Source: Promethearchaeota archaeon
Lineage (GTDB): Archaea; Asgardarchaeota; Lokiarchaeia; Sigyniarchaeales; SOKP01
Assembly (NCBI GenBank): GCA_016840165.1
Contig: JAEOSU010000072.1
Span: forward strand, 256,001 to 320,000
Reading direction: 5' to 3'
Length of the DNA: 64,000 bases
The notes below the pieces were generated by a model. That model was not told the origin of the DNA, made no database searches, and saw only the letters and a list, made by a program, of their open reading frames with translations. Both the position numbers and the translations under genes were made by a program. Shown piece after piece: positions 27,923 to 33,984 of this stretch (positions are counted from its first letter, which is position 1; the number at the start of each line of letters is the position of its first letter).

Positions 27923-28246
27923 TTATGGGCAGTTACAGCTTTTTTGTACGCTTTTAGCAACACTTCTAGCATTCCACAAACATCCACAACCTTTCTGCTC
28001 ATTTAAAATAATGGCGTTGACAGGGCAGTTTCGCTGACAAGCACTACATTCTGTGCATAATTCTGGATGGGTTATCTCGAACTTCCCATTCTCCTTTTCG
28101 TGGGGTAATCCAAATGGACAGAGTTCGGCACAAAGCCCACAACCAGTACATTCTGGCTCTTTTATCATTATTTTTATACCTAAAACACGTAAAATGTTAT
28201 CTAAAGAATTTGTATTACAACAAGCGTTCTGATTTATATCTACCAT
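27923..28246 (-). CDS. 2[4Fe-4S] ferredoxin, HgcB-like
   Basis: CTGCGLCAELCP and CTECSACQRNCP, plus a Cys-rich tail (GCGC...SCNCP) and N-terminal CC; directly after the hgcA-like gene. Confidence 0.8.
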   Translation of the reverse strand: MVDINQNACCNTNSLDNILRVLGIKIMIKEPECTGCGLCAELCPFGLPHEKENGKFEITHPELCTECSACQRNCPVNAIILNEQKGCGCLWNARSVAKSVQKSCNCP

Positions 28247-28266
28247 ATTATCTATTCCTCCTTTTA

Positions 28267-29925
28267 TTATATTATGTTAAAAAAATTAATTATATTTAAT
28301 CCTAAGAACAAAAAAACAATGATTATTAATATTATATTGATTCTTCTGAAAATTGGATACTCTAACTGTATTTCTCTTGGACTAGTCGCCATCGTGTATC
28401 CACTGAAAGACATCGTTGAGAAGAAACTTAGCCAAAAAATAATTACACTCTGTAAAAAAACATAGAGCACTGAGTAATGAATAAACCATGTAAATAGGCT
28501 TAGAATAAAGAGAGTAATACCTCCAAAAAATATTGCTTTTAGAACAAATTTTCTTGTAAATTTTGAAAGTGGGAAGAAAATGGATATTATAGCGTTTGAT
28601 AAAATTACCCAGATTGCCAACTCCCCAACCCAAAATAGATATTTTGCTTTACTTAAAGCTAGAAGTAGGATTAATAGTCCTAAAAGAGGTAACCAAAATA
28701 TTTTGCGAAATAAAAAAGTAATATGTGTTATTCCCGCACGGATTCTTTGAGTAAAGGTAAATTTCGCAAGTTTCATAGAATCTGGTTTTTTAGTAGGTTT
28801 ATTCTTGACATATTCCTTTATTTTATTCGACCATACTGGTCCATATTTTATTTTAAAAGGAAAATTTTTAGGAAGCTGTGGGATTGATATTCCACCTGCA
28901 GATAATTGAGGGAGAATCAGAGTTTTTGTGTTTGTAATCTGTTTAATTCCAGTAGCATTGATTGCATTTAAGAGTTGTATATTTCCAAAGTCTCCGCCTC
29001 TCGCAGCACACCATACATTTATGCCGTTAGAATCTATACATAAAACCCAAGCGTCAATATCTTTTAAATCTCGCATTACTTTTATATATGTATAGTCATA
29101 ATTAGCAGTCACAATAATAGGAGAGTGCTCATCTGGATTTCCTGACCTATAAATACCCGGTTCGATTGCAACTCTATCCACTTGCCCAGTAAATAAACAT
29201 CGGTATATTCTAAACTGAGATTTTATTCCTTTAAAGTTTCGTAATTTCGGTCTATAGTATCCTGGTTCGTTTTCGGTGTTGACTGTAATTTTTTGTAATT
29301 CTATAGCTCTAATAGCCCCATGAGCCCATTCCTTTTTTGTAAGAATTTTGAATCCTATAGAACTTAAAAAACCTAAAAAGTAATTATTAGTATGAGTACC
29401 TCCCAATCTTAATTTCCGTAATTTTTTTTTATACCACCATCTTTTTAACCTAAATTGTATCTTCCAGAAACCTGAAGGGATAAACTCTGCCGCTATTATT
29501 AGCCTTCCATCAGGTTTCAAAGCTCTCCAAACATTTCTCAAAAAAATTTGTTGTTCTAAAGGTTTAAGCTCAGAAAGCATAAATGTACTCAATATAAGAT
29601 CTTGTGAGCTATTGTCAACTTCTAAGTCCTTATAAGAACCGACTTGGTATAAAAGCTCTACTTCTTTTTCAGTTGGATAATTATCCATAGCATATTTAAT
29701 CATATTCAAGTTATTATCTATTGCTTTAACAATATTCTCTTTTAAAGCAGCATTTTTTGCTAAAGTACCAGTGCCACATCCAATATCTAAGATAGTACTG
29801 TTTTTTTTAATCTTTTCCAATATCCACTCTTGAACTTTATTATTTACGCCCTTAGTTAAAGATGTGAATTCTGAATCATATGATTTCGGAACTTCCTCTA
29901 ATTTTTTCATATATACTACTGCCAT
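28267..29925 (-). CDS. SAM-methyltransferase fused to HgcA-like corrinoid-binding membrane protein
   Basis: N-terminal ILDIGCGTG...RALKPDGRL. Then EPGIYRSGNPDEHSPIIVTANY, cap helix GINVWCAARGG, LILPQLSAGG, YGPV, about 5 TM helices and MSFSGYT..TS. Confidence 0.82.
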   Translation of the reverse strand: MAVVYMKKLEEVPKSYDSEFTSLTKGVNNKVQEWILEKIKKNSTILDIGCGTGTLAKNAALKENIVKAIDNNLNMIKYAMDNYPTEKEVELLYQVGSYKDLEVDNSSQDLILSTFMLSELKPLEQQIFLRNVWRALKPDGRLIIAAEFIPSGFWKIQFRLKRWWYKKKLRKLRLGGTHTNNYFLGFLSSIGFKILTKKEWAHGAIRAIELQKITVNTENEPGYYRPKLRNFKGIKSQFRIYRCLFTGQVDRVAIEPGIYRSGNPDEHSPIIVTANYDYTYIKVMRDLKDIDAWVLCIDSNGINVWCAARGGDFGNIQLLNAINATGIKQITNTKTLILPQLSAGGISIPQLPKNFPFKIKYGPVWSNKIKEYVKNKPTKKPDSMKLAKFTFTQRIRAGITHITFLFRKIFWLPLLGLLILLLALSKAKYLFWVGELAIWVILSNAIISIFFPLSKFTRKFVLKAIFFGGITLFILSLFTWFIHYSVLYVFLQSVIIFWLSFFSTMSFSGYTMATSPREIQLEYPIFRRINIILIIIVFLFLGLNIINFFNII

Positions 29926-29936
29926 TCAACACCAAC

Positions 29937-31022
29937 TTATTTGGATTTCCAAAACCCAATTTTTCCCAAATATCTCCCTAAATAGACAATTGAGAGCATA
30001 ATAGGCACTTCCCAGAACAACCCCATGGTAGTACCTAATGCGGCATAAGAACCAATCCCATACATCGCTATTGCTGTTGCGATCGCGATCTCAAAATGAC
30101 TAGACGAACCAATGATGACTGTAATTACTGCCTCTTTATATTTCAATTTAAGCAATTTTGTGACTATAACATTATAACTAACAACAATTACAAATCCCAC
30201 CAATAGGGGAATAGATACTATTAATAAAAGATCAGGATTAGTAATTAGTACATTACCATTTAGCGAAAATAGTACAACAAGAGTTATCAATAAAGCTATA
30301 ATCGATACTTTTCCGACGAATGGACGATATTTTTCATCGAACCAAACTTTACCTTTAGAAGATATTATTAATTTCTTGCTTAAGATCCCCAGAAGCAAAG
30401 GTAAACCAATAAAAAATATTAAAGAAACAAGTAATAGTAAAATATCTATAGGAATATTTTTAATTCCTGATAATAATGAGACCATTCCAACATAGCCAAA
30501 AATTATTGTAATTGTATTAAGACTTGTATTAAGGACATTTTGTTCCTGATTTCCTTTAGCCATCCAACCCCAAACCAAAACCATAGCAGTACAGGGTGAA
30601 CTAGATAATAAAATAATTGCAAATCCCAATTGTCTCACTATTTCTGAATCTCCCGGTAAAAATATGTTTACCATCAACAAACCAACGAAGGGTGCCACTA
30701 ACCAGTTAGAGATTAAAGTTAAAATTATAGGTTTGGGATTCTTTCCAAGTTTTTTTAATTCCGATGCTTGAAGATTTAACATCGCAGGATACATCATTAA
30801 AAATAAACAAATACCAATTGGTATAGAAATGTTTCCAATAGTGAAAGAATTGATTAAAATACTAATTTCTGGAAGAAATTGGGAAATTAAAATCCCTAAG
30901 ATTATGCAAATTCCTACCCAGATTGGTAATAATCTTTCAAAATAGTTGATTTTTCTCGATTTTTGTTTATCTGGTTCATCAAAACTCTCTAATAATTCCT
31001 GTTCAAACTCTTCTTCAGCCAT
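29937..31022 (-). CDS. acr3: Acr3-family arsenite efflux permease
   Basis: FERLLPIWV, LMMYP, SPCTAMVLVW, SSHFEIAIATAI and EVPIML. Confidence 0.92.
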   Translation of the reverse strand: MAEEEFEQELLESFDEPDKQKSRKINYFERLLPIWVGICIILGILISQFLPEISILINSFTIGNISIPIGICLFLMMYPAMLNLQASELKKLGKNPKPIILTLISNWLVAPFVGLLMVNIFLPGDSEIVRQLGFAIILLSSSPCTAMVLVWGWMAKGNQEQNVLNTSLNTITIIFGYVGMVSLLSGIKNIPIDILLLLVSLIFFIGLPLLLGILSKKLIISSKGKVWFDEKYRPFVGKVSIIALLITLVVLFSLNGNVLITNPDLLLIVSIPLLVGFVIVVSYNVIVTKLLKLKYKEAVITVIIGSSSHFEIAIATAIAMYGIGSYAALGTTMGLFWEVPIMLSIVYLGRYLGKIGFWKSK

Positions 31023-31128
31023 AATTCTCAAATTATATTTAATGTGTTTTTATTCATATTATTAAATGAAATTGTAATTTCATCTAATTAGAGTCTGAGA
31101 TATAGTTATTTTGGCTCAAATAAAAACA

Positions 31129-31146
31129 TTTCGATTTGAATCGAAA
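31129..31146. promoter_or_regulatory. Palindrome between divergent acr3 and arsR, candidate ArsR operator
   Basis: TTTCGATT-TG-AATCGAAA, a perfect 8-2-8 inverted repeat. Confidence 0.5.
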
Positions 31147-31728: not shown

Positions 31729-33984
31729 TTATTTTGGTTTTAATGTTTGTTTAGACTCGAGATTTTCTGAAATAGCTTCTTTTGTAAAGAGATAGGGAAT
31801 ATACTTTCCTTTCACCCAAAGTTTAATTAAATCTTTATAATGTTTATGAAAGGGAAGACCAGATTGACCACCAGGAAGGGCTCCTATAGAATTATCCCAG
31901 TTTGAGAGATCATGAATCTGACGATAAGATGGCCCAGAGAGCACATCGAATCCTTCAGAAGGATCATAAGAGCCCGGATTTAAAGTATTTCCATCTCCTC
32001 CAATTTTAAAAGGACCAGCGTTTAGGATTTTTGCTTGTTCGTTAGCTTGTGAAAAGGGATGCGTCAATGTGAGTGTATGAAGTCTCCCCCACATCCATTT
32101 ATCGGATCTAGAACCAAAAAGGTTAGATAGGTAATCTAAAGCTCTTTCTAAAGCCTTAAGTAGTAATTTTGAGATCTCTGCTTCCTTGTTTCTATACAAG
32201 GATTCAAAAATTTGTTTCAAATTGAAAGGTCGACTTCCAAGAGCCATATGAGCCACCTTTGTACCTAGTATAGATTCTAATACAGATTTTTGAGTCTCAC
32301 TATACCAGACTTTAAATATAGTTCCGGCAATAGTTGTTTTTGTCAAAAAATAGTTCCATTTTTCTAAGTAAGAAATAGAATCTTGAACATTCGATAAATC
32401 TTTGTTCTCTTTTAAATATTGAAGCATAATGGGTAATAGTTCTGCGGCCTCTTCTGTAAATCTATCGAGCTGGAAAGCCTTAAAATCCTCAATCGATAAT
32501 TTTTCTTTGGATTGAAGTAGCTTCTTTAATCTTAATTGTCTATATGGAGCGATTCTATCTTCTGCGATTAATAATCCATTTGGTGCTTTTTCTACGTTGT
32601 AATTTGCAGTATAAACAAAACCTCGTTCTGGGTTATAGAGGGAATATAATTTATCAAATTCAGAGATCCCTTCCCAGTCATATTTTTCATCATCCCCAGG
32701 ACTTATACTTGCTCCGTTTCCATATTTTCTTACAGGTATTTTTCCTCCATGTTGATGTCCAATATTACCAGCGATATCTCCATAAATGAAGTTTTGTGGA
32801 TTTATTGTTATAAGAGATAAGGCCTCTCTGAATTCTTGCCAACTTGAAGCTTTATTGATTCCTTTAAATCCTTTTAGATTATTAATAAGATCCGCATTAT
32901 AACTAGACCATTTTAATGCGTATTTACCTTCTATAAAAAAGGGATATATCTGATTATAATTCTCAAAGTAATTAATTACAGGTCCGAATCTACTGCGATA
33001 GACAGGATATTTTAGTGGTTTTGATTCACCTTTGATATGGATTACTTCTTCATCAATTTCAAAATCTACCCATTTACCATTATAGCGATATTGCTTTTCA
33101 TCATTTGGATTTATAGTTAATTTAAATAAATCTGTTGTATCAGCCATAACATTAGTTAAGCCCCAAGCAATTGATTCATTATGACCTATTACAACTGCAG
33201 GTACTCCAGGAAGAGAAGTACCTAGGACATTAAGATCGGGACAATTTAAATGAATTAAGAACCATAATGCTGGGTTGGTTAGTGGTAGATGGGGATCATT
33301 AGCTAATAATACAGATCCACTTTGAGATTTTTTCGGGCTTACCGCCCACGAGTTGCTCCCAACAGATTCATCAACCAACATTTCAGAGTTAAAAGGTATA
33401 ATTAAGTTAGCTGTTTTCTTTCCATTTTTAATTGTTATATACTCTCTTAGGATTTCATATGGATAATTCCAACTACTTAATGACCATTCGATCATACTAA
33501 TGATTTTAAAACAATCCTCTAATTTCCATGCATCAGGTTTAAAATTTAATACATGATATTCAATAGGTAAACTATTTTCTATTATTTGGATTCTTGTATT
33601 TACACCTTTTATATAAGAGTCCATAAATTTAAAATCTTCAGAATTTTTCTTTCTTTCGAGATCTCGAGCACATCTTTGAGCAATATGGTATAAACCGATT
33701 TCTCTATAATGCTTATCACTGGCTATTGAACCCTTTCCAGTGATTTCAGAAAGAGTCCCGGAAATTAATCTTCTAAAGGTTTCCATTTGCCATAATCTAT
33801 GACCTGCATGGATATATCCTTGCGTAAAATATAGATCATATATATCGTTAGCAAAAACATGTGGTATACCCCATTTATCCCACAGTATTTCTACACTAGC
33901 ATTTAAACCTTTAACAGTTTCTTCTCCTTGCATCAATGGAAATGATTTTTTGGCAATTTCTAACATTTCTTCCATAATTATCAC
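31729..33984 (-). CDS. Penicillin acylase family (Ntn hydrolase, S45)
   Basis: DKWGIPHV, GSNSWAVS (N-terminal nucleophile Ser), LANDPHL and GQSGLPFHKHY.D. Confidence 0.92.
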   Translation of the reverse strand: MIIMEEMLEIAKKSFPLMQGEETVKGLNASVEILWDKWGIPHVFANDIYDLYFTQGYIHAGHRLWQMETFRRLISGTLSEITGKGSIASDKHYREIGLYHIAQRCARDLERKKNSEDFKFMDSYIKGVNTRIQIIENSLPIEYHVLNFKPDAWKLEDCFKIISMIEWSLSSWNYPYEILREYITIKNGKKTANLIIPFNSEMLVDESVGSNSWAVSPKKSQSGSVLLANDPHLPLTNPALWFLIHLNCPDLNVLGTSLPGVPAVVIGHNESIAWGLTNVMADTTDLFKLTINPNDEKQYRYNGKWVDFEIDEEVIHIKGESKPLKYPVYRSRFGPVINYFENYNQIYPFFIEGKYALKWSSYNADLINNLKGFKGINKASSWQEFREALSLITINPQNFIYGDIAGNIGHQHGGKIPVRKYGNGASISPGDDEKYDWEGISEFDKLYSLYNPERGFVYTANYNVEKAPNGLLIAEDRIAPYRQLRLKKLLQSKEKLSIEDFKAFQLDRFTEEAAELLPIMLQYLKENKDLSNVQDSISYLEKWNYFLTKTTIAGTIFKVWYSETQKSVLESILGTKVAHMALGSRPFNLKQIFESLYRNKEAEISKLLLKALERALDYLSNLFGSRSDKWMWGRLHTLTLTHPFSQANEQAKILNAGPFKIGGDGNTLNPGSYDPSEGFDVLSGPSYRQIHDLSNWDNSIGALPGGQSGLPFHKHYKDLIKLWVKGKYIPYLFTKEAISENLESKQTLKPK

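Follow-up and report, generated by a model that had tools for sequence, protein, structure and literature searches.

A methyltransferase–HgcA-like fusion protein with an HgcB-like ferredoxin in an arsenite-resistance operon of an Asgard archaeon

Gene Organization of the Locus

We analysed a 64,000-nucleotide (nt) stretch of a Promethearchaeota archaeon genome (assembly GCA_016840165.1, contig JAEOSU010000072.1, positions 256,001–320,000), hereafter the window, which contains a gene for a putative S-adenosylmethionine (SAM)-dependent methyltransferase fused to an HgcA-like corrinoid protein. The fusion gene (P0001; window 28267–29925, minus strand) is a single open reading frame (ORF) of 552 amino acids (aa), and the gene for an HgcB-like 2×[4Fe-4S] ferredoxin (P0002; 107 aa, 27923–28246, minus strand) lies directly downstream. 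Both genes follow acr3, and the gaps on this strand are 11 nt between acr3 and the fusion gene, 20 nt between the fusion and ferredoxin genes, and 33 nt between the ferredoxin gene and a small gene designated P4. The ORFs were found at the coordinates given in an initial annotation of this DNA, and the arsR/acr3 operon context that it described, with its gaps of 11 and 20 nt, is right by coordinates.

The Fusion Protein

The domains of P0001 are all encoded on the minus strand. Residues 1–215 (29281–29925) form a class I SAM methyltransferase domain, which appears to be a divergent CpaM homologue, and residues about 236–395 (28741–29220; Pfam CdhD, 3.1e-15) form an HgcA-like corrinoid-binding domain. 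The cap helix of the latter reads NVWCAARG in translation (28996–29019) and carries Cys306 as the putative Co ligand. Residues 391–552 plus the stop codon (28267–28755) correspond to a transmembrane (TM) domain of five helices, as delimited by the AlphaFold2 (AF2) model. Pfam matches to methyltransferase domains lay at about residues 35–166, and those to CdhD/corrinoid domains at 241–343. N303, V304, and C306 of the cap helix and the SAM motifs were invariant in an alignment of 63 fusions.

The AF2 model of P0001, built on a 63-row alignment, had a predicted local distance difference test score (pLDDT) of 92.5 and a predicted TM-score (pTM) of 0.88, and comprised a Rossmann methyltransferase, a corrinoid domain, and five TM helices. 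The C-terminal helices spanned residues 391–423, 427–449, 460–483, 486–510, and 516–550, with pLDDT values mostly above 90. The top Foldseek match of the model was the HgcAB model 9a0b_A (TM-score 0.61), and the TM domain of P0001 aligned with the TM part of the HgcA model; lower matches were methyltransferases of the Coq5/UbiG/PmtA type. The sequence matches of the corrinoid domain in the PDB were large subunits of the corrinoid iron-sulfur protein (CFeSP; 2h9a, 4c1n, and 9fzy), and a sequence search of the PDB returned no experimentally solved HgcA or HgcAB complex. Pfam and AF2 thus agree with the initial reading of the ORF as a class I SAM methyltransferase joined to a corrinoid domain with NVWCAARG and a TM anchor.

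A word-indexed search gave more than 120 clusters of full-length homologues of P0001 (541–578 aa, 59–93% identity) from JGI, ENA, NCBI, and Logan assemblies. All named homologues belonged to Asgard metagenome-assembled genomes (MAGs) and were annotated merely as “methyltransferase domain-containing protein”; the fusion-carrying contigs recovered by a genome-contig scan were likewise from MAGs only. At the level of 50% clusters, about 25–30 representatives were fusions. In a search of 201 genomes of the phylum, full-length matches were present in about 30 of the 40 sampled genomes of the same family, and two other Asgard families contained more distant full-length fusions (32–37% identity). The fusion of the methyltransferase and the corrinoid protein is not an assembly artefact, as it recurs in independent Asgard assemblies. 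The initial annotation had named an artefact, or the absence of the fusion from related genomes, as grounds for withdrawing its proposal; the clusters of the same length and the frequency within the family rule out both. A distant, apparently bacterial fusion of a methyltransferase and an HgcA-like protein (L145:8869–9963, minus strand; 28% identity) was also found. It is convergent with a gene of the URO-D/MtaA family, which includes methylcobalamin-dependent methyltransferases, and lies near a thioredoxin gene.

The HgcB-like Ferredoxin

P0002 contains two CX2CX2CX3C motifs, a GCGC motif directly after the core (27980–27991), and a C-terminal CNC. The eight cluster cysteines, G86, C87, and C89 were invariant among 36 homologues of P0002, and C106 was nearly so. 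In the predicted complex of P0001 and P0002, the interface score ipSAE was 0.77, and the best of three controls gave 0.00; for comparison, 58 of 80 solved complexes and 2 of 110 mismatched pairs attained the ipSAE mark. Three runs agreed in at least 91% of the contacts, and the pLDDT of the partner was at least 73. The predicted interface involved Cys306, cap-helix residues 308–311, the conserved 340–350 loop, and the TM loops on the side of the fusion, and both cluster regions and residues 84–94 around GCGC on the side of the ferredoxin. Synteny, conservation, and the predicted complex, which supports binding, point to P0002 as the ferredoxin partner of the fusion; the initial view of an HgcB-like partner next to the fusion was borne out.

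Family Assignment

We compared the products with NCBIfam models using the cut-offs of 180 bits for CpaM (NF043040), 275 for HgcA (NF040863), 285 for HgcAB_like (NF043039), 99 for HgcB (NF040864), 263 for ArsM (NF008823), and 282.8 for Acr3 (TIGR00832). The N-terminus of P0001 scored 135.8 bits against CpaM, below the cut-off, and aligned to positions 2–213 of 216; the next best methyltransferase family scored 50 bits, 85 bits under CpaM. The corrinoid part scored 176.3 bits against HgcA and 177.9 bits against HgcAB_like, aligning to positions 15–264 of 350 only in the latter, and P0002 gave its best match, of 51 bits, to HgcB, whose extra cysteine sites it carries in variant form. Scoring against HgcA and HgcB hidden Markov models, which the initial annotation had proposed as a check, therefore returned HgcA/HgcAB_like and HgcB as the best matches, but all of them below the cut-offs.

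P0001 shares with canonical HgcA the cap-helix cysteine (Cys93 of strain ND132) and a C-terminal multi-helix TM domain. However, its score is too low, its cap helix NVWCAARG does not conform to the Hg-MATE high-stringency motif N[V/I]WC[A/S][A/G/S]GK (PMC10087281), and it lies outside the canonical clade. It also differs from the HgcAB-like family in that its score is below the cut-off, its ferredoxin is encoded by a separate gene, and it falls outside the HgcAB-like clade. In regards to CpaM, the score falls short, and linkage to an HgcA-type corrinoid protein is present, here as a fusion in cis. Because the scores are below every NCBIfam cut-off, the corrinoid protein belongs neither with canonical HgcA nor with the canonical HgcAB-like proteins. 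The N-terminal methyltransferase is, as judged by its profile scores, a divergent CpaM (“corrinoid protein-associated methyltransferase”).

Module Architectures

A survey of 55 loci gave four architectures of the same three modules, the methyltransferase (MT), the corrinoid protein (COR), and the ferredoxin (FER), across the phylum: MT::COR + FER, which is the type of the window; the triple fusion MT::COR::FER (590–655 aa); MT + COR::FER, in which a true CpaM (237–265 bits) occurs with a true HgcAB_like protein (367–441 bits); and the fully split MT + COR + FER. The order of the modules was constant and they were always adjacent, and the methyltransferase adjoined or was fused to the corrinoid protein in all 55 loci. 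The fusion of the window type and the true CpaM/HgcAB-like pair coexist in some genomes of the window's own family (for example G008). The methyltransferase domains of all architectures aligned over their full length, with common SAM motifs and an N-terminal M..E..P..YD signature; G49xG51xG53 and D70 of the SAM motifs and the family-specific N-terminal residues M6, E10, and Y16 were invariant across all of them. Beyond the system itself, no gene neighbours common to all architectures were found, and a radical SAM protein and an ABC ATPase recurred loosely.

The four independent architectures (a Rosetta-stone argument), together with the published biochemistry of HgcAB (PMC11588087), argue that the methyltransferase and the corrinoid protein are functionally coupled. 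The SAM-to-cobalamin part of the methyl relay proposed in the initial annotation gains support in this way, given that a CpaM homologue invariably adjoins the corrinoid protein or is joined to it in one chain.

The cap helix reads NVWCAARG in 55 of 71 MT–corrinoid fusions. Among 107 unfused relatives whose cap helix was readable, almost every one retains the final Lys, usually within NVWCxxGK, and this Lys is absent from every form linked to a methyltransferase or to a fused ferredoxin. The change from GK to RG is therefore a signature of this branch and not a feature of the locus. The initial annotation had taken this change as arsenic-linked; that suggestion has to be dropped, since the change is not special to the locus and is shared by members of the branch without ars neighbours.

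In the fully split form, found in another Asgard family (L080, L084, L086, and L087), the methyltransferase, the corrinoid protein, and a ferredoxin of 74 aa are encoded by separate genes. These loci directly adjoin a gene for a 1152-aa HdrA-like/MvhD fusion and lie near a gene for a CCG-domain (HdrB-like) protein. The HdrA-like/MvhD neighbour suggests a dedicated low-potential electron supply for the split form.

Phylogeny

The main tree was inferred under LG+C20 from 85 rows with CdhE as the outgroup, which was clearly separated (100/100). In this tree the canonical HgcA clade (98/93) and the clade of HgcAB-like proteins proper (96/82) both excluded the window clade, which was itself strongly supported (100/100) and had a sister from another Asgard family (94/91). 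All non-canonical forms grouped with moderate support (86/69). Quick trees and a reduced LG+G4 set placed the window clade beside canonical HgcA instead, with weak support (64–81), and a constraint uniting all non-canonical forms was not rejected in the reduced 46-row set (approximately unbiased test, p = 0.675). The order of the window clade, canonical HgcA, and HgcAB-like proteins thus differs between trees, and the reduced 46-row test does not choose among these orders. On these sequences the window type is a third lineage, excluded from both named families. In the tree with CdhE/AcsC that had been suggested as a check, CdhE behaved as an outgroup and the window clade was strong, but the window protein did not fall inside canonical HgcA.

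Asgard sequences were placed in the “fused-HgcAB” half of a published tree after trimming of 327 poorly aligned N-terminal columns (PMC10083202), and the third-lineage placement fits this position. The N-terminal methyltransferase is not mentioned in the literature that we found on Asgard HgcA relatives, and the columns trimmed in that study were the first 327 of the alignment.

These data bear on the reading of the system as a functional mercury methylase, equivalent to HgcAB and carrying its SAM-binding module in cis, with the ars context reflecting shared ArsR-type regulation as in Pseudodesulfovibrio. The HgcA-like fold with its cap-helix cysteine and five-helix TM domain, an HgcB-like partner with extra cysteines, the use of SAM as the donor by true HgcAB (PMC11588087), and the trees that place the window clade next to canonical HgcA are all compatible with mercury methylation. 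We nevertheless consider it improbable: the HgcA score is 176 against 275 bits, the Hg-MATE motif fails, the protein lies outside the strongly supported canonical clade, and the only tested relatives outside that clade (fused HgcAB, from P. furiosus and others) make no methylmercury (MeHg) (PMC10087281, PMC10083202). In addition, no mercury-specific genes were seen in the operon, in which mer genes were not searched for.

Operon Neighbours

The acr3 gene (29937–31031, minus strand; Pfam SBF, 5e-36) encodes a probable arsenite efflux permease of 364 aa when read from TTG, with which the longest ORF begins; an ATG lies 3 codons in. The product scored 257 bits against TIGR00832, just under the cut-off, and aligned to positions 2–325 of 327. 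It contains a Cys (SSSPCTAMV) and a Glu (HFEIAIA) that we take to be the conserved residues of Acr3.

Divergent from the operon, arsR (P0005; 31267–31626, plus strand; Pfam HTH_5, 2.1e-14) encodes an ArsR/SmtB metalloregulator of 119 aa, which scored 70 bits against NCBIfam HTH_metalloreg (cut-off 55). ArsR has a CVCE motif in the region of the DNA-binding helix and an N-terminal LCSCDVC, and C59-V-C61-E62 was invariant in 14 regulators adjoining fusions in two Asgard families. The arsR/acr3 intergenic region contains a perfect palindrome, TTTCGATT-TG-AATCGAAA (31129–31146). An identical palindrome lies upstream of arsR at about the same distance in a related locus (L033), with a near-copy in another (L117), and TCGA-N6-TCGA sites occurred only 3 times in 290 kb of loci, each time upstream of arsR. 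We regard the palindrome as a candidate ArsR operator, to which ArsR would bind.

In most relatives (L034:6143–6898, plus strand; L033; L143) a DUF166 gene, with a weak match to the “DfsP” DUF166 selenoprotein family, lies between arsR and acr3. It is absent from the window, where the arsR–acr3 distance is only 235 nt. On the other side of arsR, an ORF of 751 aa (31729–33984, minus strand) lies between arsR and conserved 418-aa/SMC genes; this position is empty in L033 and L034.

P4 (27614–27889, minus strand), 33 nt after the ferredoxin gene, encodes a protein of 91 aa with a predicted thioredoxin-like fold and an invariant CxC. Its family comprised 175 clusters, all Asgard and all annotated as “hypothetical”, with no Pfam domain; C19 and C21 were invariant among the homologues, C62 was nearly so, and some homologues carried Cys-rich N-terminal extensions. 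The AF2 model (pLDDT 89) had a beta-alpha-beta...beta-beta-alpha order in which helix 1 begins at the CxC, and Foldseek gave weak thioredoxin matches (E about 2e-3, TM-score 0.6–0.67). P4 followed hgcB in 14 related loci, mostly those bearing acr3, and it was present in this position in the majority of the acr3-linked loci. P4 may act in thiol redox reactions or as a chaperone for metal(loid)s. A relationship to ArsD was rejected, as the top 50 Foldseek matches contained no ArsD and only weak thioredoxins.

Arsenic Linkage across Relatives

The acr3 gene of the operon gave the single Acr3 match in the whole genome to which the window belongs. No ArsM was found in this genome at the cut-off (best 82 against 263 bits), nor was a second HgcA relative apart from CdhE, which sits on another contig. 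Of 29 loci of the family, 15 had acr3 immediately upstream of the fusion, among them those of all 12 other genomes sampled from the window's genus; arsR adjoined the fusion without acr3 in 5 more family loci. The conserved order on longer contigs was arsR diverging from DUF166-acr3-MT::hgcA-hgcB-P4.

ArsM was present in 13 of 41 family genomes. The operon types in relatives were acr3-arsM only, DUF166-acr3-arsM-MT::hgcA-hgcB with an ArsM of 347 bits, and arsM-DUF166-MT::hgcA-hgcB. A bona fide arsM (347 bits) occurred in the same operon as the fusion in L143 of genome G209, and arsM and the fusion likewise share an operon in G129. Of the genomes sampled in both searches, 5 carried the fusion as well as ArsM, 11 had the fusion but no ArsM, 4 had ArsM but no fusion, and 2 lacked both; these genomes are too few and too closely related for any claim of complementarity between ArsM and the fusion. 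The coexistence of the two suggests that the function of the fusion is not redundant with that of ArsM.

An alternative in which the N-terminal methyltransferase methylates arsenite in the manner of ArsM, with the corrinoid/TM part serving only as a membrane anchor or redox accessory, could draw on the position in an ars operon and on the likeness of P0001 to ArsM-type models, which is weak (35–42 bits against cut-offs of 263–575). We hold this to be highly improbable. The only Cys in residues 1–240 of P0001 is C50, inside SAM motif I, so that the cysteine triad of ArsM is absent; CpaM is by far the best family; the cap-helix Cys of the corrinoid domain is invariant; and in relatives the operon with the fusion also encodes a true ArsM.

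In one genus, MarR takes the place of arsR/acr3 before the fusion (L146:8896–10333, minus strand; L147:6170–6646, plus strand), and in L146 a gene for an NADPH-dependent flavin mononucleotide (FMN) reductase also lies between the MarR gene and the fusion. The FMN reductase upstream of the fusions of this sub-lineage (g2) was considered as ArsH and rejected, as no ArsH was among its NCBIfam matches. Overall, the neighbours of the other architectures and of the sub-lineage included HdrA/MvhD-like and CCG proteins (in the split form), radical SAM proteins, FMN reductase, and MarR. An ars operon context was not seen at the true CpaM/HgcAB-like loci of the locus survey.

Proposed Mechanism

We propose that these genes make up a self-loading corrinoid methyltransferase system that belongs to the CpaM/HgcA superfamily and is expressed from an ArsR-controlled arsenite-resistance operon, a reading to which we give about an even chance of being correct. 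ArsR, with its CVC thiolate site, would leave the palindromic operator upon binding a thiophilic metal(loid) and thereby switch on acr3, the MT::hgcA-like fusion gene, the hgcB-like gene, and P4. The HgcB-like ferredoxin would dock on the corrinoid/TM face and reduce cobalamin to Co(I), and the fused CpaM-type methyltransferase would bind SAM and methylate the Co(I). In the product, CH3-Co(III), Cys306 of the cap helix would serve as the “Cys-on” ligand. At the membrane face, the ferredoxin would present a soft metal(loid) on its cysteine pairs (GCGC and the C-terminal CxC), and this metal(loid) would then receive the methyl group. From context, the favoured substrate would be As(III), Sb(III), or a methylarsenical in preference to Hg(II), with Acr3 exporting the unmethylated remainder. 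Our grounds for this preference are that the sequence departs from canonical HgcA in score, motif, and clade, that the tested non-canonical relatives form no MeHg, and that the gene lies in an arsenite-efflux operon.

Several observations weigh against this proposal. The arsenic linkage is real but lineage-restricted, being a property of one genus and scattered relatives and not of the whole family; the linkage recorded in the initial annotation accordingly holds for the window's genus and these relatives but does not extend family-wide. In a sub-lineage of the same family the order is MarR-FMN reductase-MT::hgcA-hgcB and ars genes are absent for 7 kb around it, and Acr3 was found within 8 kb in 0 of 51 loci of the other architectures. 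ArsM and the fusion occur in one operon in some relatives, which makes simple redundancy unlikely. As(III) is a nucleophile that takes CH3+, and a dedicated two-electron ferredoxin at each turnover is therefore left unexplained. An ArsR that has CVC together with cysteines near its N-terminus might just as well respond to Cd, Pb, or Hg.

In another explanation, a corrinoid enzyme acts on a non-metal(loid) acceptor (a thiol, an organic compound, or a reductive reaction such as halomethane dehalogenation) and the ars neighbourhood reflects secondary recruitment or co-regulation. Most architectures and one sub-lineage of the family lack ars genes nearby, the distant bacterial fusion lies beside a URO-D/MtaA-family gene, and CCl4 dechlorination by heterologously expressed HgcAB has been described in a preprint (bioRxiv 10.64898/2026.04.26.720869). 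However, the conserved SAM methyltransferase speaks for methyl transfer and not for dehalogenation alone, the ferredoxin has invariant extra cysteine pairs of a kind typical for the handling of soft metals, and the operon linkage with acr3, arsM, and CVC-ArsR recurs in several genera, with ArsR in two families. We consider such an acceptor rather unlikely, and the self-loading system acting on As(III), Sb(III), or a methylarsenical remains our preferred reading.

A wider proposition would be that Asgard archaea possess a second, cobalamin-dependent and ArsM-independent route of As/Sb methylation, in which a CpaM-type methyltransferase charges an HgcA-like membrane corrinoid protein with methyl groups from SAM, that such metalloid handling and not mercury methylation is the native and perhaps ancestral task of the HgcA superfamily, and that canonical HgcAB was derived by loss of the methyltransferase. 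We put this forward as tentative and, on balance, doubtful.

Significance

Why microbes carry hgcAB is unsettled: mercury methylation has no known benefit, and the arsenic links of canonical hgcAB are indirect. The locus adds independent genomic support to the recent and unexpected result that SAM feeds the corrinoid of HgcA, as a putative SAM-binding enzyme is here fused to the corrinoid protein. It also places an HgcA relative in an arsenite-efflux operon of nearly abutting genes (gaps of 11–33 nt), with a true arsM beside it in some relatives. The compact cassette of three or four genes makes the native substrate of the enzyme family directly testable; the system may be a B12-based methylase of arsenic-like elements and would offer a handle on the natural role of the HgcA family. 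Surveys of hgcA based on motifs and cut-offs will either discard genes of this kind or, if the stringency is low, list them among the mercury methylators.

Comparison with Known Systems

Part of this picture is already known: NCBIfam names CpaM and HgcAB-like proteins as a pair, and links between arsenic genes and canonical hgcAB have been published. With SAM as the methyl source, purified HgcAB forms methylcob(III)alamin, in which the cobalt has a thiolate ligand (PMC11588087). Canonical hgcAB is under ArsR regulation, responds to arsenic, and in some cases has acr3, arsC, or arsM beside it (bioRxiv 10.1101/2022.10.17.512643; PMC7438021); fused HgcAB did not methylate Hg (PMC10087281); and Asgard HgcA relatives are on record (PMC10083202). 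The literature therefore confirms the background that the initial annotation had given on the SAM donor, on the ars neighbours of hgcAB, and on Asgard HgcA relatives. We found no paper describing CpaM, the term “CpaM” returning only unrelated acronyms, and none on the MT::HgcA fusion, on the clade that it forms, or on its occurrence in acr3/arsM operons.

The CpaM/HgcAB-like pair consists of the same three modules in the same order as in the window, namely a class I SAM methyltransferase, an HgcA-type corrinoid/TM protein, and a 2×[4Fe-4S] ferredoxin. The methyltransferase of the window aligns with CpaM end to end and has the N-terminal M..E..P..YD signature in common with it, and the cap helix of the pair lacks the canonical final Lys, as in the window. 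The joints differ: corrinoid and ferredoxin are fused in HgcAB-like proteins, whereas methyltransferase and corrinoid are fused in the window. Bona fide members of the pair occur in the same phylum, while both halves of the window protein score below the two cut-offs.

Canonical HgcA and HgcB of Pseudodesulfovibrio mercurii ND132 resemble the window system in the corrinoid domain with a cap-helix Cys, the five-helix TM domain, and the separate ferredoxin gene directly downstream, whose product carries a Cys site behind the core and another at its C-terminal end. In contrast, canonical HgcA has no methyltransferase domain and its cap helix ends in GK, where the window protein has NVWCAARG; the HgcB motif C(M/I)ECGAC is CTECSAC in the ferredoxin of the window.

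ArsM (NF008823) is likewise SAM-dependent and encoded in ars operons next to acr3, and in relatives it takes the slot directly after acr3. However, ArsM is soluble and cobalamin-independent and binds As(III) by its own cysteines, which the window protein lacks; the latter scores 35 against 263 bits with this model. CdhE/AcsC, the CFeSP large subunit, has a homologous corrinoid-binding domain (PF03599). Unlike CdhE/AcsC, the window protein has no N-terminal [4Fe-4S] or TIM-barrel part, and it has instead a Cys-bearing cap helix, a TM domain, and a putative SAM methyltransferase.

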